64,000 nt of DNA, taken from Candidatus Saccharimonadota bacterium. GTDB lineage: Bacteria > Patescibacteriota > Saccharimonadia > Saccharimonadales > JACDBH01. Within the stretch, counting starts at the first letter, position 1, and every line of letters starts with the position of its first letter. The stretch is from assembly GCA_013694995.1 (NCBI GenBank), contig JACDBH010000002.1, forward strand, positions 17,425 to 81,424, read 5' to 3'. Shown piece by piece: positions 30,573 to 38,911 of the stretch. The notes below the pieces were generated by a model. It saw only the letters and a program-made list of their open reading frames with translations, was not told the DNA's origin and searched no databases. The position numbers and the translations under genes are program-made.

Positions 30573-30974
30573 ATGAGTGGTATGGAAGAAAATCTTGGAC
30601 AGCGCCGTAAAAAAATTTTGTTAGTTGAAGACGATGACGGTCTGGCGCAGGTTTATGTTATCCGCCTCGAGACCGAAGGTTTTGAGATCAAACGCGTTCC
30701 CAACGGCGAAGATGCCCTGGCTGCCACTCTAGAATTCAAACCCGATTTAATCCTGCTCGATGTTATGATGCCGAAGGTTAGCGGATTTGATGTACTGGAT
30801 ATTCTGCGCAATACTCCGGAAACAGCAAACGTTAAGGTAATCATGTTAACGGCGCTCAGCCAGGAGACAGACCGCGAAAAGGCCCAGAGCATGGGCGTGG
30901 ATGATTACCTCGTTAAATCCCAGGTTGTTATCGCTGACGTCGTTGAACGCGTGAAACTCCAACTCGGCGTCTAA
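30573..30974 (+). CDS. Single-domain response regulator (CheY-like receiver)
   Basis: 133 aa. Canonical residues are present: VEDDD, DLILLDVMMP, MLTAL and a conserved Lys (LVKS). Confidence 0.88.
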   Translation: MSGMEENLGQRRKKILLVEDDDGLAQVYVIRLETEGFEIKRVPNGEDALAATLEFKPDLILLDVMMPKVSGFDVLDILRNTPETANVKVIMLTALSQETDREKAQSMGVDDYLVKSQVVIADVVERVKLQLGV

Positions 30975-31392: not shown

Positions 31393-31665
31393 TTACTGGA
31401 CAGTGACTTCGGTGCGCCAAGCAGTTTTGCCGGTGAAGGTCTGGACTTTACGCTGACGGAAGGCTACAACACCGTCACGAGCCGCGTGGATAGTGTAGTT
31501 ACGAGATACTTTGGTACCATCGCCGCCGCGCTTGCTCATGCCGACCTGGCGGACAATAATTTGGCCGATTTTAACCTTTTCGCCGCCAAACAACTTAACA
31601 CCTAGGCGAGGGCCGCCGTTGTTATGGTTGTTTTTGCTGGTTCCACCTGCTTTTACGTGTGACAT
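31393..31665 (-). CDS. rpmA: 50S ribosomal protein L27
   Basis: 90 aa. MSHVKAGGTSKNN...RLGVKLFGGEKV...IIVRQVG pattern. Confidence 0.93.
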   Translation of the reverse strand: MSHVKAGGTSKNNHNNGGPRLGVKLFGGEKVKIGQIIVRQVGMSKRGGDGTKVSRNYTIHAARDGVVAFRQRKVQTFTGKTAWRTEVTVQ

Positions 31666-31678
31666 AGTGTTCGATTCC

Positions 31679-32845
31679 TTAGCTCTTTTCTAAAACTACG
31701 AGTTCACGGGCGACAATTTGGTCTGGTCTATGGTAGATCAGATCCTCATAAGAGGCGTGAACAAAACTCAAGCGAGTATACCCCAAATCTTTGAGATGGT
31801 CAAGCGTTCTAAGGTGTAAAAATCTGTGTTTTTGTTTCCAGGCTGGCACTGCAAGCGCAAGTTTTGCACCTTTTTTTAATTGACGGGCAATATTTTGTAA
31901 AAATTTTTCATTAAGTAAGTCGGGTTCTTTCATTATTTGATCGAGCACATGTCGGGGAGGTAATGACGTAAGCGGCTTACCCAAGAACGTCTCACTAACG
32001 ATACTATCGATCGGCGGATGCCAAACCAGGGTAGTGGAATCGCCTTGTTCGACGGTTCCATTGATTTTTACCCCATGGGAGCTATTGAGCCACTTGAGGT
32101 TTTCTATCGTATAACTAACCATCCGTTTATCAACATCGGTACCGTAGATCTCGAGCCCCATTAATGCTGCCTCCTGAAGTACTACACCCGTACCGCAAAA
32201 TGGGTCAAGTACCGTAGCGCCAGTGGCTGGATTAGCGAGATTAATCAAAATTTGCGCAAGCTTAGGTGGTAACATGCCGACCTTAGGGTCGCGCATAGGG
32301 CGATTCTGGTCCCGCCGGGCATAGGCATCAATATCTTGCTCCGCTGCTGTCAATCCAAGAATAGTCTGCTGTTCATCACGGACAAGTACTAGTTCCCAGC
32401 CGGTAGGGGTGGTGAGCTGGTTATGGAGCACCTGGGCGCTATTGAGTGCCGGTGCTTTATTGGGTATTATCCGCACCGAGCGGTCCTGAGCTTTAATAAT
32501 CTTCTTAAGCCTAAGCCCGGTGGCGTTGATATCGCGAGGCGATACCGACAGCCCGTAAGTGCTAAGCCCCAACTTGAATTTACCCTCAGGAACATACTGC
32601 AAATGTTCGGGTATCATTTTTCCTAGATAGGTTTCTATATCCGGCCAGTTTATTGTATCGAGAACATTTAATAGCTTACATAGTTTGATGCTGCCACCTA
32701 GTCGGACAAAATTAATCTCATTAGTGTCAACATCAAGCAGGGCAGCCTGCGTGCCTGCTGGTTTCACTGCAGCATGGCCATAAATACTTTCGAGTTCGGC
32801 TAATCCGATAAATGGCTGTCTACCTAAAATAATCAAACTCTTCAT
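31679..32845 (-). CDS. SAM-dependent methyltransferase (UPF0020/Trm11-like, probably RNA)
   Basis: 388 aa. VLDPFCGTGVVLQEAALMG motif I. About 190 aa N-terminal domain of unknown fold. Confidence 0.7.
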   Translation of the reverse strand: MKSLIILGRQPFIGLAELESIYGHAAVKPAGTQAALLDVDTNEINFVRLGGSIKLCKLLNVLDTINWPDIETYLGKMIPEHLQYVPEGKFKLGLSTYGLSVSPRDINATGLRLKKIIKAQDRSVRIIPNKAPALNSAQVLHNQLTTPTGWELVLVRDEQQTILGLTAAEQDIDAYARRDQNRPMRDPKVGMLPPKLAQILINLANPATGATVLDPFCGTGVVLQEAALMGLEIYGTDVDKRMVSYTIENLKWLNSSHGVKINGTVEQGDSTTLVWHPPIDSIVSETFLGKPLTSLPPRHVLDQIMKEPDLLNEKFLQNIARQLKKGAKLALAVPAWKQKHRFLHLRTLDHLKDLGYTRLSFVHASYEDLIYHRPDQIVARELVVLEKS

Positions 32846-32902
32846 TCTTAAATAGTATACATAAAAACCGCCGTCGCTTGTCGTATAATAGCTTGCAGGT
32901 AT

Positions 32903-33979
32903 ATGGCAGCGAAAATTAAGTTAAACTTTAAATTCTGGCTCAATATTATAACGATTGGGGCTTTGGTATTCCTGGTGGTTATTTCATGGGACCAGATAAT
33001 CGAGGCTTTCCGGAAGTTGGATAGTCTCAATACCTGGGCATTGTTACTTATGATTCCAATCCAGCTCATAAGTTACTACGGTGTGGCCCGATTATATCGC
33101 GACTTTTTTGCTTCGCAAGGTGAGCATGTACCCCTTAAAACCCTCTACTCAGTCGCGCTTGAGCTTAATTTTGTGAATCATGTGTTTCCAAGCGGTGGAG
33201 TTAGTGGATTCAGTTACCTTAGTTTGCGCTTAAAGAACTTAGGTATTAGTACTGCTAAGAGTACATTGGCTCAGATTTTGCGCTTTACACTAACATTTAT
33301 TTCTTTTTTGGTGTTGCTATTTTTTGGCATGATTATGCTGTCGTTTGGTTCTAATACCAGCCCGCTAACTATTCTTATTAGTTCAACTATAATTTTTATG
33401 ACTATTTTTGGCGTCATGGTTGGGGTTTATATAATTAGTGAACTAAGGCGAATCAATGCATTTGTCAGCTGGTTGCCCAGGGCGCTCAATAAGTTAATTG
33501 GTGTCTTCCGTAAGAACCGCCGATCAGTCATAGATATCGCTAAAGTTGAAAAAACCCTCGAGGACCTACATCAGGATTATATTTTGCTGCGTAAGGATCT
33601 GGGGCAGATCAAGAAGCTACTTGGTTGGGCGCTACTAATTAATATTACCGAAGTACTCACAATCTATATGGTTTACATTGCGTTCGGTAGCCTTATAAAC
33701 CCTGGCGCGCTCATCATAGCCTATGCAGTAGCTAATTTTGCTGGGCTAATAGCCGTATTGCCTGGAGGCGTGGGTATTTATGAGGGTTTAATGACGGCGG
33801 TGCTAGCTAGCGCTGGCGTTGAAAAAGCCCTGGCGTTGTCAGCGACTGTCATTTACCGTGTTTTGAGCATGCTGTACTTCCTGCCGGTGGGGTATTATCT
33901 ATATCAGCGTGCGCTCAAGAAATCAGACGGAAAAATTAAACCATCCAAAACCGATGTTACCTCTTTTATCACCAAGTGA
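32903..33979 (+). CDS. UPF0104 / flippase-like (MprF-TM-like) membrane protein
   Basis: 358 aa, about 8 TM helices. LPGGVGIYEGLMTAVL motif typical of the family. Confidence 0.7.
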   Translation: MAAKIKLNFKFWLNIITIGALVFLVVISWDQIIEAFRKLDSLNTWALLLMIPIQLISYYGVARLYRDFFASQGEHVPLKTLYSVALELNFVNHVFPSGGVSGFSYLSLRLKNLGISTAKSTLAQILRFTLTFISFLVLLFFGMIMLSFGSNTSPLTILISSTIIFMTIFGVMVGVYIISELRRINAFVSWLPRALNKLIGVFRKNRRSVIDIAKVEKTLEDLHQDYILLRKDLGQIKKLLGWALLINITEVLTIYMVYIAFGSLINPGALIIAYAVANFAGLIAVLPGGVGIYEGLMTAVLASAGVEKALALSATVIYRVLSMLYFLPVGYYLYQRALKKSDGKIKPSKTDVTSFITK

Positions 33980-35057
33980 ATTCGTAGCCCTAGTTAATCA
34001 AACATTGGAGTTCGCGTATCCTCTAGTGGAGATAGAAGGCGAAGTAAGTAACTTTAAAATCAGTAAAAATCGATGGGTTTATTTCGATATTCAGGACGAA
34101 GGAGCCAAAGTTCGCTGCTTCGGAACAGTCTATATGTTGCCGGCGCCGGTTGAGGATGGCATGATGGTGCGTCTCGTTTCAATACCTAAGCTGCATCCTC
34201 AATTTGGCTTCAGCTGCAATCTTCAGTCGCTACAATTCAGTGGCGAAGGGACAATCAAAAAAGCGTCAGATCTGTTGGCAGCCCAATTAGAAAAGGAGGG
34301 TTTATTTGCAGCTGAGCGAAAACGTCAGCTGCCGTATCCGCCGCAACGCATTGCATTAATTGCGTCGAGTGAATCCGCAGGATATAAGGATTTTTTAAAA
34401 ATATTAGAGAGCCGTTACGGCGGCATGGAAATTGAACTGGCTGACGTACAAGTACAAGGCGAAGCCGCTGTGCAGCAGATTGTTAGCGCTATAGAATGGT
34501 TCAACAAGCAGGCCGACCTTGCTGATGTTATAGTTTTAACTCGCGGCGGTGGCAGTGCTGACGACCTACAGGCCTTTAGCTCGGAGCAAGTGACGAGGGC
34601 GGTAGCTAGCAGCCGTATACCCACTATAATTGCAATTGGCCACGAGGTAGATATAAGCCTAGCAGAATTAGCGGCCGACAAACGGGCCAGTACACCTAGT
34701 AATGCCGCTGAAATATTAGTACCCGACAGACGCGCCCTATTGCAGGAACTATCTATGACCACTAAACAGCTTGAACGAGATTTTATGGCATCAATCGTGC
34801 AACAATCAGAATTTATACATGCACTCAGAGGCCAGCTAGATAGTGTTTTGCAACGTATGTTGACTAGTAAACAAACAGAGCTTATGCACCTGAGCCGTAC
34901 ACTAGAAGTACTGAGCCCACAAGCTATATTGCGCCGCGGCTATAGTATTGTACGGTCGCTGGATGGCAGGGCAGTGCGGATTGCAAAGTCATTACGTGCA
35001 AAAGACATGGTAAAGATAGAATTTGCCGACGGCAATGTAGAGGCTAAGGTACAATAA
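33954..35057 (+). CDS. xseA: Exodeoxyribonuclease VII large subunit
   Basis: Starts MLPLLSPSEFVALVNQTLE with EIEGEVSNF (OB fold). Contains TRGGGSADDL. The track start (33909) was trimmed. Confidence 0.92.
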   Translation: MLPLLSPSEFVALVNQTLEFAYPLVEIEGEVSNFKISKNRWVYFDIQDEGAKVRCFGTVYMLPAPVEDGMMVRLVSIPKLHPQFGFSCNLQSLQFSGEGTIKKASDLLAAQLEKEGLFAAERKRQLPYPPQRIALIASSESAGYKDFLKILESRYGGMEIELADVQVQGEAAVQQIVSAIEWFNKQADLADVIVLTRGGGSADDLQAFSSEQVTRAVASSRIPTIIAIGHEVDISLAELAADKRASTPSNAAEILVPDRRALLQELSMTTKQLERDFMASIVQQSEFIHALRGQLDSVLQRMLTSKQTELMHLSRTLEVLSPQAILRRGYSIVRSLDGRAVRIAKSLRAKDMVKIEFADGNVEAKVQ

Positions 35058-35061
35058 GCAA

Positions 35062-35259
35062 ATGAAACAATCCATGTCAGAACTACAATTTGAACTTGAG
35101 CAGATTATAGAATGGTTCGGGTCGGCCGATACTGATATAGATGAAGCGGCCGCTAAGTACAAGCGCGGCATGGAACTTATAGCATTACTTCAAGAGCGTC
35201 TTAAGGTCACTGAAAATACTGTTACCAAGCTCAAGCTGTCTTTTGATAAAAAAACATGA
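35062..35259 (+). CDS. xseB: Exodeoxyribonuclease VII small subunit
   Basis: 65 aa helical hairpin directly after xseA. Confidence 0.88.
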   Translation: MKQSMSELQFELEQIIEWFGSADTDIDEAAAKYKRGMELIALLQERLKVTENTVTKLKLSFDKKT

Positions 35260-35756
35260 GTATTATTAGTTTTGCACTCCTGGTTATTGGCCTGATTATT
35301 CTGTTGTTTGGTTTTGTTGTTGCATTTGGCGCCCCGTTTTTACCAACACTAAATAAACAGACCGAAGATATATTTACGCTATTAAATTTAAATCCTGGCC
35401 AGATTCTCTTGGAATTAGGAAGCGGTGACGGCAGGGTACTGTTAGCTGCCGCTAAGCGTGGTATAACCGCTATAGGCTATGAACTCAATCCGTTATTGGC
35501 AACCTTTAGCTGGCTGCGATGCTTTCGCTATAGACATCTTATTACTGTCCGGTGGGGAAACTACTGGCAGGCTTCTTGGCCACCGTGCGATGGAATCTAT
35601 GTGTTTCTACTCGATAAATATATGAAAAAACTGGATAAAAAAATTATTAGAGAAATTAGTAAACCCGTCAAGCTTGTGAGCTTTGCATTTAAAATACCAA
35701 ATAAGCGAGTGGTAACAGAGTCGCATGGACTTTTGTTGTACGAGTATCAGAAGTAG
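35256..35756 (+). CDS. TM-anchored class I SAM-dependent methyltransferase (FAM173-like?)
   Basis: 166 aa. N-terminal TM helix, GAPFLPT, and LELGSGDGRVLLAAAKRG motif I. Confidence 0.7.
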   Translation: MSIISFALLVIGLIILLFGFVVAFGAPFLPTLNKQTEDIFTLLNLNPGQILLELGSGDGRVLLAAAKRGITAIGYELNPLLATFSWLRCFRYRHLITVRWGNYWQASWPPCDGIYVFLLDKYMKKLDKKIIREISKPVKLVSFAFKIPNKRVVTESHGLLLYEYQK

Positions 35757-35839: not shown

Positions 35840-36490
35840 ATGCATAAGCTTGATCAAGCTGGGTCAATGGTGTTGCCGCTCGTTATTGTGAGTGTAATGT
35901 TTATTGCAAGTCTTGGCTTCGGTATTTGGGCATTTGCTGGCAGGCAAGACTATAAAAACAATTCAGACGCCAAAATCACGGCGGCGGTAGGAGTGGCCGA
36001 AGAAGCGCTGATTATCAAAAAGGACGAAGAGTTTGCCGAAAGCTCAAAGTCGCCCTACAAATCTTATCAAGGGCCAGTGACGTATGGCACGCTAACATTT
36101 GAATATCCCAAAACCTGGAGTGCTTATATAGATGAGAATGGCAGTGGAAGCCTTGTGCTTCAGGGCTTTGTTCATCCTAATTTCGTTCCTTCGACTGATT
36201 CAGCTGCAACATATGCGCTTCGTTTTGAGGTAGTCAATACTGGTTATGATCAGCTACTAAAGACGTACGAAAGTACAGTCAAAACAGGTAAGGTAAAACT
36301 TTCAGCCTACCGAGCTCCAAGGACCCAAAGCGAATTAGGTGCGCGAATCGAGGGCGAGATATCGAGTAAAAAGCAAGGCGTAATGGTTGTATTTCGACTC
36401 CGGGACAAATCTATCAAGGTTTGGACTGAGGGCCAAGAATACCGCGCGGATTTTGAAAGAGTCCTAGAAACGCTGACATTTGTTCCTTAG
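35840..36490 (+). CDS. Hypothetical N-terminally anchored protein
   Basis: 216 aa with one N-terminal TM helix. TATAAA lies 6 nt before the ATG. Confidence 0.6.
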   Translation: MHKLDQAGSMVLPLVIVSVMFIASLGFGIWAFAGRQDYKNNSDAKITAAVGVAEEALIIKKDEEFAESSKSPYKSYQGPVTYGTLTFEYPKTWSAYIDENGSGSLVLQGFVHPNFVPSTDSAATYALRFEVVNTGYDQLLKTYESTVKTGKVKLSAYRAPRTQSELGARIEGEISSKKQGVMVVFRLRDKSIKVWTEGQEYRADFERVLETLTFVP

Positions 36491-36526
36491 CCTATTTATA
36501 GTCGGCTATTACATTTTTGCTATGCT

Positions 36527-37285
36527 ATGATTAGAGTTGAAGAAGCGAGGGTAAATACAGTCATGGCACGTAGCGGCCAATATACCGAAACTGATAGATT
36601 ATTTTTAAATCTGGCCGAGCAAGTCAAATTGCCGTTTGTGCAGATTTTGCATGAATCGGAACTTTTAAGAACCAGATTCCAAGATCCAAGTATTGCAGCT
36701 TCGAGTCAACTTATTACCATGACCAGCCAGTCGGCTTTGAGCTTAATAGATGGCTATTTGCTTAGCGTTCAGATGCAGAACGAGCAGCAGTTGGAGTTGG
36801 AACCGGTGTCAGTAAGTTCGGCAGTCTATGATGTTGCAGAATCACTTGATCAGTATGCCCAAGCCCATAGCTGTAAATTAGAACTACACGTAGCCGGCAA
36901 ATACGGCCCAGTGATGGCCAACCGTCGCGCAGTTTACGTGGCTCTTAGAAATCTAAGCTCTAATTTTATAGAGGCTGTTTCAGCGCAACGCTCAGAAAGT
37001 GATATGACTTTGCGACTAGCAGTTAGAAAGAACGCCAGTGGAGTCAGTACGGGAATATTTTCATATTATCCATTACTTTCCAGTAGTTTGTTAGCCAAGG
37101 CAAAGCTTATAAACGGTATGGTTCATCAGCCAATGGCCAAATTTGATAGCGGTATGGGGAGCGGGGTTTTTGTTGCTGATGCTTTGCTGCGCCAGTTCGA
37201 CGCGCCTCTCAAGGTTGCACGATTTCAAGGTATGCACGGTCTCGCCACAACCTTGCTACCAAGTCGGCAGCTTAACCTCATTTGA
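36527..37285 (+). CDS. Soluble histidine-kinase-like protein lacking the phospho-acceptor His
   Basis: 252 aa. H-box-like FLNLAEQVKLPF (E/Q where His is expected), N-box ALRNLSSNFIEA, G2-like SGMGSGVF. The true start may be Met at 36563. Confidence 0.65.
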   Translation: MIRVEEARVNTVMARSGQYTETDRLFLNLAEQVKLPFVQILHESELLRTRFQDPSIAASSQLITMTSQSALSLIDGYLLSVQMQNEQQLELEPVSVSSAVYDVAESLDQYAQAHSCKLELHVAGKYGPVMANRRAVYVALRNLSSNFIEAVSAQRSESDMTLRLAVRKNASGVSTGIFSYYPLLSSSLLAKAKLINGMVHQPMAKFDSGMGSGVFVADALLRQFDAPLKVARFQGMHGLATTLLPSRQLNLI

Positions 37286-37677
37286 TTATGCCGAATATAT
37301 TACTGCTTGAGCCTAACCAGTTGTTGGGAGAACAATATTCCAACTATCTTCGTAATTTAGATTATGTAGTTGATTGGGTCAAAAACGCCCAAGAAGCGGT
37401 TTTCCAAGCTGATAAGAAAAAGCCCGATCTGGTACTGATGGAACTTCTGTTGGCAGCCCATAGTGGCCTGGAATTTTTATACGAATTCAGAAGTTACAAC
37501 GAGTGGCAATCGGTTCCGATTATTATTCTAAGCCGCATTCCAAGAGCGGAATTTCCAGTCAGTGATAAAATTCTCGCCGAGTTCGGTATTACTAAATTTT
37601 TGTATAAGCCAGAAACTACGCTTAACGATTTAAGCGCGAAAATTGCACGTATATTACCTGCAAAAATGCAGGCCTAA
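37282..37677 (+). CDS. Receiver-like protein with non-canonical active site (pseudo-receiver)
   Basis: 131 aa. LLLEPN replaces the acidic DD pair. DLVLMELLL has Glu at the phospho-Asp position. IIILS and LYKP are retained. Overlaps the upstream stop codon. Confidence 0.7.
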   Translation: MIMPNILLLEPNQLLGEQYSNYLRNLDYVVDWVKNAQEAVFQADKKKPDLVLMELLLAAHSGLEFLYEFRSYNEWQSVPIIILSRIPRAEFPVSDKILAEFGITKFLYKPETTLNDLSAKIARILPAKMQA

Positions 37678-38378
37678 TGAATAACCTGGCGACAAGCGGG
37701 ATCATACTCCGACGCATAGAGTACGGTGAAGCTGATCGCATTATTACTTTTTTGACTGCCGAATATGGCAAAATGACAGCAATTGCCAAGGGTGTACGGA
37801 AACAAAATAGTAAACTTGCGGGTGGGGTCGAACTATTCAGTGTATCTGAACTGCATTTTATAAAAGGTAGAAAGGAAATAGATACACTAGTCTCAACCCG
37901 GCTGCAAAAACATTTTGGTTCAATTGTTAAAGATGTCCGTCGTACCGAAATTGGATTTTTGATGCTCAAGGTTGCCTATAAGACAATTGAAGATGGAGCC
38001 GGCCAAGAATACTATCCGGTACTCGAAGATGGACTGTCCGCCTTGAATGAATTAAGTATCCCGGCTGTACTTAGTGAATTATCATTTGATATGCGGGTAC
38101 TTCAGCTGCTCGGGCATGTGCCTAAGTTTAATGTCGATCAAAAAGGGGATGCCATCGGTGAGGCTGACTCCTATCAGTTTGATTTTGACTTGGTGAAGTT
38201 TATTCCTGCCGGTGGCGGCTTATTTACTAAGAACCATGTCAAGCTCCTCAGGCTGCTTGCCCATAATAGCCCACTGACCTTAAAAGCGGTTCAAAATGTA
38301 GAGCAGTACTGTGATGATTTAGCGCCGCTAGTACGTCATCTGGCACAACAGTATTTGCCTATAGTGCTACAAACTTGA
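37677..38378 (+). CDS. recO: DNA repair protein RecO
   Basis: 233 aa. GIILRRIEYGEADRIITFLT OB-fold N-terminus. Its ATG overlaps the upstream TAA by 1 nt. Confidence 0.88.
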   Translation: MNNLATSGIILRRIEYGEADRIITFLTAEYGKMTAIAKGVRKQNSKLAGGVELFSVSELHFIKGRKEIDTLVSTRLQKHFGSIVKDVRRTEIGFLMLKVAYKTIEDGAGQEYYPVLEDGLSALNELSIPAVLSELSFDMRVLQLLGHVPKFNVDQKGDAIGEADSYQFDFDLVKFIPAGGGLFTKNHVKLLRLLAHNSPLTLKAVQNVEQYCDDLAPLVRHLAQQYLPIVLQT

Positions 38379-38434
38379 CAATGATGCTTATGTTTGCTAT
38401 AATATAAGTATTAAATTAAAATAAAATAAAACTG

Positions 38435-38911
38435 ATGAATAATATAAATAATTACGAGTACATAGAACCAGACCAGGCAGCTGAACTAGCACGTCCTGGT
38501 ATCGCTGAGAATCGACCATTTGATCAAGAAAAGGGTGATGTGTTTTCATACTTCACCTTGGATCCATCACAATCAGTACAGTTAGATAAAGAACCTAACC
38601 CTAAATTAAATAACATTGTTAAATCTATCACCGATGCACCTAGCTTACGTGGCAAGAAAATTCCTAGTAATCAGCCCAGAATCTTCGATATTAGTGAACA
38701 AAGCGAATCTATTGAAACAGATCCGGTCAAGAAAATGTCAGCGCTAGACGTATATCAAGCACGAACAACAAAATTTGGAAAGTTTGTTGACCGGCTAGTA
38801 TTTGGCAAAGACGTTGTAGGCACTCGAGTTCACTCTAAGGCAGTTGATGCTGCTAATAAACGTAAGTTTGTCGAAAAGCAAACTGACCGGCTTACGCGCC
38901 CGCATTTCTAA
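38435..38911 (+). CDS. Hypothetical protein (158 aa)
   Basis: Clean ORF with no motif recognised. TATAAT promoter with a 30-nt AT-rich leader. Confidence 0.55.
   Translation: MNNINNYEYIEPDQAAELARPGIAENRPFDQEKGDVFSYFTLDPSQSVQLDKEPNPKLNNIVKSITDAPSLRGKKIPSNQPRIFDISEQSESIETDPVKKMSALDVYQARTTKFGKFVDRLVFGKDVVGTRVHSKAVDAANKRKFVEKQTDRLTRPHF

Follow-up and report, generated by a model that had tools for sequence, protein, structure and literature searches.

Several percent of all receiver domains are pseudo-receivers. A 2025 review (PMC12632262) describes their mechanisms as mostly obscure and nearly all of the cases studied as orphans; among the 20 bacterial atypical regulators covered in that review only two are not orphans, and a dead partner kinase is mentioned for neither. 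On the kinase side, the pseudo-histidine kinase has been defined by Collins and Childers (cited in PMC12632262), and the described examples with which we compare our locus are DivL of Caulobacter, which binds a single-domain receiver (PMC4211667), RetS of Pseudomonas, and the Streptomyces histidine pseudokinase PsmA (PMC12963549), the last being the most similar of the three. Here we analyze three adjacent genes at positions 36527-38378 of a 64,000-nucleotide stretch from a Candidatus Saccharimonadota bacterium (contig JACDBH010000002.1, hereafter the window; all coordinates are counted from its first position). They encode a small histidine-kinase-like protein, a receiver-like protein and the recombination mediator RecO, and lie head to tail on the + strand as in a preliminary description made from the letters alone, which had proposed a phosphorylation-dead kinase-like/receiver-like pair coupled to recO. 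We conclude that the first two genes probably encode a two-component pair that is incompetent for phosphotransfer and acts through protein-protein contacts. We found no literature description of such a pseudo-kinase/pseudo-receiver pair.

Results

A histidine-kinase core that lacks the phospho-accepting histidine

The first open reading frame (ORF1; 36527-37285, + strand) encodes 252 amino acids, or 240 from an alternative ATG at 36563 that is the start used by NCBI. Pfam yields nothing for it at E<=1, and its NCBIfam kinase matches are weak (CreC, 3.9e-6; PhoR, 9e-4); a search of PDB with the single sequence gave no match, so that a family profile was needed. An AlphaFold2 (AF2) model built with 36 family members (pLDDT 87.2, pTM 0.83) contains a DHp helical hairpin, formed by residues 6-50 and 54-85, followed by a CA-like alpha/beta domain, and when this model was compared with PDB using Foldseek the matches were exclusively DHp+CA cores of sensor kinases, with E values from 3e-11 to 1e-9 for ZraS, HK853, GacS and CpxA; the pseudokinases DivL and RetS were also among them. 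In the model, ORF1 is a histidine-kinase core fold (DHp plus CA), the outline that had been recognized by eye.

Aligning the 36-sequence profile with PDB sequences places LAEQVKLP of ORF1 on the H-boxes of ShkA (LSHEFRTP), GacS (MSHEIRTP) and HK853 (ISHELRTP), and Glu31 therefore occupies the phospho-His position, as proposed in the preliminary description. The substitution is family-wide: across 263 family members the position holds Glu in 232, Gln in 12, Asp in 6, His in 3 and another residue in 4, with a gap in the remaining 6. The phosphatase motif E/D-x-x-T/N that follows the His in HisKA kinases is present in two of 257 members, and the window protein has Q-V-K-L there.

For the CA domain, residues of the N-box and G1 box were mapped by one profile alignment, to GacS. 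In the same 263 proteins the N-box Asn column that would serve Mg-ATP is mostly Ser (138), Ala (45) or Val (29), with Asn in seven, and the G1 Asp column is mostly Ser (132), Gly (57), Ala (22) or Thr (21), with Asp in eight and Ser179 in the window protein, in agreement with the degenerate G1 box noted earlier. The N-box claimed for ORF1 holds in part: both Asn residues, N142 and N146, are present in the window protein, but Asn is not conserved in the family, and its rarity in that column indicates that it is not under selection. The G2 glycines are mostly kept (G213 in 247 of 263). Pfam HATPase_c was matched by none of the 36 profile members at E<=1, and HisKA weakly by 12 of them. As had also been stated, ORF1 has neither a transmembrane (TM) segment, the maximum 19-residue hydropathy being 1.04, nor a sensor domain, because the DHp helix begins at residue 6.

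Measured against a functional HisKA kinase, ORF1 has the fold and lacks the His, the ATP-Mg residues, the phosphatase motif and scores above the Pfam gathering thresholds. With a predicted kinase fold and the apparent loss of at least one kinase function, it qualifies as a pseudo-histidine kinase. Proteins of its family are about 230-250 amino acids long and have no precomputed Pfam domain. A word-indexed search returned 181 matches, and an exhaustive search (E<=1e-30) returned 266 clusters at 50% identity; those labelled by organism are from Saccharibacteria or Patescibacteria, save a few that are probably mis-binned. The family has invariant motifs of its own (LEPVS, GKYGPVM, GxxxQP and PSxQL), which argues that it is under selection for something other than phosphotransfer.

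The three members with His at the H-box position (P0221, P0278 and P0295, for example as LAHDLRLPL; loci L024 and L025) were considered as possible functional kinases. Their N-box and G1 positions are as degenerate as those of the other members. The P0278 and P0295 genes, whose loci were read, both precede a Glu-type receiver, and the P0295 locus, which is complete, runs on into recO. We rejected these proteins as functional kinases on account of the degenerate N-box and G1 box and, for P0278 and P0295, the Glu in the neighboring receiver; the His has the appearance of drift at a site that has ceased to be catalytic.

Public start calls for the family are inconsistent, 36527 versus 36563 in the window being one example. 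In some public records, as in the P0089 cluster (218 amino acids, 36 contigs), the gene is called from an internal Met past the H-box (MPFVQIAY...), and a 249-residue member of that cluster shows the full N-terminus.

A receiver fold with Glu at the phosphorylation site

The second reading frame (ORF2; 37288-37677, + strand, 129 amino acids) matches Pfam Response_reg (PF00072) at 2.1e-12, with 47.6 bits against a gathering threshold of 30.2. Its AF2 model (pLDDT 93.6) is a (beta-alpha)5 receiver with five strands and five helices, and the nearest structures in Foldseek are the receivers of PmrA, DivK, RR468 and PhoP. Aligned to CheY and to a canonical receiver encoded elsewhere in the window (30573-30974, + strand), the active site reads Glu at DD1, Pro at DD2, Glu at the D site, Ser at the T site and Lys, in a Lys-Pro pair, at the K site. 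The same pattern recurs throughout the 139 receivers of the family, with Glu at DD1 in all 139, Pro at DD2 in 137, Glu at the D site in 136 (Asp in the other 3), Ser (108) or Thr (31) at the T site, and Lys at the K site in all. ORF2 is, by its residues, a pseudo-receiver (PsR), a receiver missing DD2 and D with T and K kept, which bears out the earlier reading of this gene. Neither ORF1 nor ORF2 has the catalytic His or Asp at the respective column of these alignments, and the replacements run family-wide in both proteins, consistent with a pair that has degenerated together.

Conservation within the pseudo-receiver is greatest in the beta3-alpha3 loop and helix alpha3, where the sequence HSGxEFLYEFRSYxEW is nearly invariant. 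The usual alpha4-beta5-alpha5 output face is not the most conserved part, and the alpha4 region is the most variable.

The canonical receiver at 30573-30974 is a valid internal control, as had been suggested, matching Response_reg at 3.9e-23 with the full active site (E/D, D, T and K). It is an orphan single-domain receiver for which no kinase is encoded in the 64-kb window, and it comes after an S41 peptidase gene and pyrG. A similar orphan receiver, SEML1_0238, stands just after an S41 peptidase gene in Southlakia epibionticum and is non-essential there.

Such a receiver invites the idea of reverse signaling as in DivL, in which the pseudo-kinase would sense the phosphorylation state of a canonical receiver, for instance the one at 30573-30974, and the pseudo-receiver would serve as competitor or adaptor. 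There is published precedent in DivL (PMC4211667), competitor roles have been proposed for pseudo-receivers (PMC12632262), and the pseudo-kinase and the receiver model have DivL and DivK, respectively, among their best structural matches; the orphan canonical receiver, with no kinase in 64 kb, would be a ready target. In S. epibionticum, however, the positional counterpart of this receiver, SEML1_0238, is NE throughout a transposon sequencing (Tn-seq) experiment whereas the pseudo-kinase is essential. We regard this explanation as very unlikely.

The term 'partner-switch' applied in the preliminary description does not fit in the RsbW/RsbV sense, as the fold is a dimeric DHp+CA core rather than a single-domain anti-sigma kinase and the partner is a receiver. 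A partner-switching module of the RsbW/SpoIIAB plus STAS type was likewise rejected: ORF2 has no Pfam STAS match at E<=1, and ORF1 has the DHp hairpin.

The pair is fixed in a conserved gene block

The third gene (37677-38378, + strand) encodes RecO, with 80 bits to the TIGR00613 equivalog model (cut-off 48.7) and a RecO_N match at 3.2e-20. We compared gene order in 18 loci from the GTDB species set, all of them labelled Saccharibacteria, Saccharimonadia or unclassified 'bacterium', and in loci reached through individual proteins, down to 38-41% identity; the genome scan used 10 closer sequences. The order pseudo-kinase, pseudo-receiver, recO proposed from the window holds in each of the 25 other loci that were sufficiently complete for the comparison, and the pseudo-kinase gene is linked to a receiver gene in all 27 loci, the window included. 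Every locus has the same block, consisting of xseA, xseB, a small S-adenosylmethionine (SAM)-methyltransferase-like gene, a membrane-protein gene (216 amino acids), pseudo-kinase, pseudo-receiver, recO, zero to three variable genes and glyQS. Insertions occur between xseB and the methyltransferase gene and between recO and glyQS, and never inside the stretch from the methyltransferase gene to recO. The collinear block extends upstream as L27, an RNA/DNA methyltransferase-like gene (UPF0020) and LPG_synthase_TM (flippase-like), followed by xseA and xseB. The gene order of window positions 31393-35259 is kept with the pair down to about 40% protein identity, an unusually stable 10-kb block.

Identity to the window proteins is 41-52% for the kinase-like protein, 42-58% for the receiver and 39-62% for RecO; the similarity of these ranges implies that the pair evolves about as slowly as RecO, under purifying selection. 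Kinase-like and receiver reading frames are intact in all loci. The dead pair is, by this comparison of sequences, a lineage-wide trait and not a quirk of one genome. We also considered whether the pair could be no more than the functionless remains of a decayed two-component system, retained as a passenger in the operon, which the loss of all catalytic residues might suggest. Intact reading frames in every locus, divergence similar to that of RecO, representation in hundreds of clusters, new invariant motifs absent from canonical proteins (HSGxEFLYEFRSYxEW, LEPVS and GxxxQP) and the essential Tn-seq phenotype of the same-position genes all argue against a relic, and we give this idea almost no credence.

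Spacing between the genes is tight. The most likely start of the receiver is the ATG at 37288 (MPNILLLEP), two nucleotides after the kinase stop, since this N-terminus fits the family and the NCBI protein (P0121, 129 amino acids); TTG at 37282 is the less likely start. Of the two overlaps described earlier, the TTG/TGA overlap at 37282-37285 is consequently probably unused, and the TAATG at 37675-37679 is real, the ATG of recO sharing one nucleotide with the TAA of the pseudo-receiver. Across relatives the kinase-receiver spacing ranges from -4 to +24 nt. In 20 of the 24 other loci the receiver gene and recO share 4 nt, or 1 nt, at the junction of stop and start (as ATGA, GTGA or TAATG); the other four have a gap of 60-140 nt ahead of recO.

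Promoters were called as consensus matches only. A promoter-like site just 5' of the pseudo-kinase gene (36473-36502, + strand; CTGACA-18-TATAGT, 10/12) has a -10-like box that recurs in the same intergenic region of many relatives and a weak -35; a three-gene unit may begin there. At the other end, a perfect sigma-70 consensus promoter with extended TG (38375-38403, + strand; TTGACA-17-TATAAT, 12/12) overlaps the recO stop and would be the start of the next transcription unit. The same 12/12 promoter stands directly after recO in six other loci (L004, L005, L006, L010, L015 and L026), in which the downstream gene differs, and near-perfect versions are found in further loci. Because of the tight spacing and overlaps, the promoter-like site before the pseudo-kinase and the strong promoter after recO, the three genes look like one transcription unit, and the pair appears to be co-transcribed with recO and fixed in its operon, with the receiver translationally coupled to recO.

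Same-position genes are required for growth in a cultivated relative

For S. epibionticum ML1, a cultivated oral saccharibacterium of the family Saccharimonadaceae, the same block appears in Table S1 of the Tn-seq study of Wang et al. 2023 (PMC10633639), with calls at T0/T1/T2. In these data xseA and xseB (SEML1_0242/0243) and the class I SAM methyltransferase (SEML1_0244, 552 bp) are NE/NE/NE, and the hypothetical protein that follows (SEML1_0245, 663 bp) is ES/ES/ES, making it class I essential; its residues 66-220 are assigned to the ECOD group Mog1p/PsbP-like, and it is Patescibacteria-enriched (PMC10633639 Tables S1, S2). At the position of the pseudo-kinase, SEML1_0246 is GD/GD/ES, with reads falling from 91.9 to 3.8 to 0.9, and the response regulator SEML1_0247 (366 bp) is NE/GD/ES, with reads of 46.6, 0.75 and 0; both are class II essential by the definition used in that paper (PMC10633639). 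RecO (SEML1_0248, 675 bp) is NE/NE/GD, with 25, 36 and 29 insertions kept, and RecF (SEML1_0003) has the same NE/NE/GD call, in both cases a mild defect that appears late; GlyRS (SEML1_0249) is GD/ES/ES (PMC10633639). We note 4-nt overlaps at both SEML1_0246/0247 and SEML1_0247/0248.

Polarity does not account for the growth phenotype of the two genes. An effect on glyQS cannot be the cause, given that recO tolerates insertions, and since insertions in the upstream methyltransferase gene SEML1_0244 are tolerated though SEML1_0245 is essential, polarity on SEML1_0245 offers no explanation. Taken together with the conservation, these data indicate that the pair is probably essential as well as strongly conserved. 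Because the same-position genes are needed for growth in S. epibionticum and recO is nearly dispensable, we infer that the main role of the pair is broader than RecO.

These results bear directly on the proposal that the pair is a phosphorylation-independent scaffold or switch controlling RecO, and hence recombinational repair or the processing of incoming DNA. Several features are in its favor: the stop of the receiver gene and the start of recO overlap in the window and in 20 of 24 other loci, the three-gene unit looks separate and is bounded by a strong promoter directly after recO, xseA and xseB are nearby, and Saccharibacteria are naturally competent (PMC10633639). However, collinearity extends over the whole block, which makes adjacency to recO unspecific, four of the 24 other loci have the 60-140 nt gap before recO, and the class II essential pair of S. 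epibionticum is set apart by Tn-seq from recO and recF (NE/NE/GD), such that an essential role cannot run through RecO alone. The functional wiring to RecO and DNA repair claimed in the preliminary description is not upheld by these data and is the weakest part of that reading; control of RecO is in our judgment unlikely.

The methyltransferase call is relevant to a different proposal, namely that the pair retains residual or unconventional chemistry and still turns over a covalent mark, for example by ATP binding through the kept G2 loop or by modification of its two Glu residues, such as methyl-esterification by the neighboring SAM methyltransferase. The largely kept G2 glycines (G213 in 247/263), N146 of the window protein and the class I SAM methyltransferase that is always found two genes upstream would allow for this. 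Against it, the N-box Asn and G1 Asp are lost family-wide, the His position also accepts Q, A, L or R, and the same-position methyltransferase is non-essential in S. epibionticum whereas the pair is essential. We consider such chemistry highly improbable.

Neighboring genes

The gene immediately upstream of the pair (35840-36490, + strand) encodes a membrane protein in which an N-terminal TM helix is joined to a conserved domain, about 170 amino acids long, that has the invariant motifs DYKxN, PKTWS and RDK; profile searches and Pfam and PDB sequence searches with it returned nothing significant. It is a possible partner of the pair. Before it, 35256-35756 (+ strand) encodes a 166-residue protein with an N-terminal TM helix and the SAM-binding motif LELGSGDGR that is present in every locus; the start of its gene and the xseB stop share 4 nt, and its methyltransferase matches are weak (archaeal protein-lysine methyltransferase, 1e-4). 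Downstream, a 158-residue reading frame with no family match lies between recO and glyQS (38435-38911, + strand). This slot is variable between genomes and holds zero to three unrelated genes, for example a short-chain dehydrogenase gene in L021.

Discussion

Together, the predicted folds, the substituted residues and the conservation of those substitutions, the organization of the operon and the fitness data from the literature document a kinase-like/receiver-like pair which, as far as sequence can tell, is unable to carry out autophosphorylation, phosphotransfer or HisKA-type phosphatase chemistry. The reading that we consider probable is that of a pseudo-two-component system, in which a soluble kinase-like protein and a single-domain receiver-like protein would descend from a HisKA/OmpR-type pair that no longer has the phospho-His, the phosphatase motif, the residues for ATP binding, the acidic residue for metal binding or the phospho-Asp. 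In the complex that we infer, the kinase-like protein would dimerize through its DHp bundle and bind the receiver-like protein on the usual DHp/receiver alpha1 surface. In pseudo-receivers the Asp of the D position is replaced most often by Glu, which can be phosphomimetic (PMC12632262); the D-site Glu, with the kept Ser/Thr and Lys, may hold the receiver in one conformation, probably an 'on-like' one. An alpha3 output surface has been reported for the pseudo-receiver FrzS and not for true receivers (PMC12632262), and the conserved alpha3 face of the receiver, together with the conserved lid region of the CA-like domain, might contact other partners. Information, if it is passed at all, would move by binding and conformational change with no phosphoryl transfer, and a complex that is either constitutive or modulated by a ligand would be the most economical mechanism. 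The adjoining essential, membrane-anchored PsbP-like protein is a candidate input to the pair.

Several points weigh against this reading. The H-box His column tolerates Q, D, H, A, R, L and Y, so the Glu may have no specific role. N146 is kept in the window protein, and this particular protein may retain some nucleotide binding. The orthology of SEML1_0246/0247 with the pair is positional, being based on the same order over at least nine genes, gene sizes and 4-nt overlaps, and a Glu/Glu state is putative for those proteins; SEML1_0246 is annotated as a 'HAMP domain-containing histidine kinase' and may be less degenerate, and SEML1_0247 is a short gene with 10 input insertions whose Tn-seq call is weak by itself. 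Finally, the proposed binding between the kinase-like protein and the receiver is based on their genomic linkage.

A further extension is speculative and, in our estimate, rather doubtful: that Saccharibacteria rely on a phosphoryl-free module in which the PsbP-like membrane protein, the dead kinase dimer and the dead, permanently 'on-like' receiver would form an essential conformational relay or scaffold with an alpha3 output, which might link envelope or host-contact state to DNA transactions through the co-translated RecO.

The significance of the pair lies in the fact that both halves of a cognate system are dead yet have been kept together, in hundreds of sequence clusters, and that growth depends on the same-position genes in the only relative for which Tn-seq data exist. 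At about 240 and 129 amino acids, with no other domains, the two proteins are a compact test case for what kinase-like and receiver-like folds do without phosphate, and natural transformation with allelic replacement has been published for S. epibionticum, making the system genetically tractable. The annotation labels that these genes carry, 'histidine kinase', 'response regulator transcription factor' or 'hypothetical', overstate the signaling capacity of these reduced genomes.

Comparison with known systems

PsmA resembles the pair in having a HisKA-type core whose H-box His is replaced by Glu (a residue that varies from one species to another), and in its lost phosphatase motif and degenerate ATP-binding motifs; it acts by protein-protein contact, with DivIVA (PMC12963549). 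It differs in being a large hybrid whose receiver keeps the Asp, in its restriction to the Streptomycetaceae and in not being essential (PMC12963549), whereas the pair consists of two separate small proteins with no other domain, of which the receiver is also dead. DivL is like the pseudo-kinase in combining a kinase fold that lacks the phospho-His with binding to a single-domain receiver (PMC4211667), and unlike it in having Tyr at the His position, PAS sensor domains and a membrane anchor; its partner DivK, unlike the pseudo-receiver, is a normal phosphorylatable receiver that is encoded elsewhere.

RetS, also kinase-like, signals by binding another DHp domain and not by canonical phosphotransfer. 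It is a large hybrid sensor in the membrane, with its receivers retained, and its target is the kinase GacS; the saccharibacterial pair has no second kinase encoded nearby. Among pseudo-receivers, ChxR has Glu at the D site. Glu-type bacterial pseudo-receivers such as this one, and the plant PRRs, share with ORF2 the PF00072 fold and the missing Asp, and are active without phosphorylation (PMC12632262). ORF2 differs from these in being a single domain, in having Pro at DD2 and in always being encoded beside a dead kinase-like protein.

The HisKA/OmpR systems PhoR-PhoB and CreC-CreB give the best sequence matches for both proteins and share the kinase-receiver order and the tight coupling; the pair, unlike them, has no sensor, TM, HAMP or DNA-binding output domain and is without the His, the Asp, the ATP residues and the phosphatase motif. 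Against this background the saccharibacterial pair appears unusual in that neither half of a cognate operonic pair is live, each protein is a minimal single module, and the two are fixed across a large radiation and apparently required for growth.

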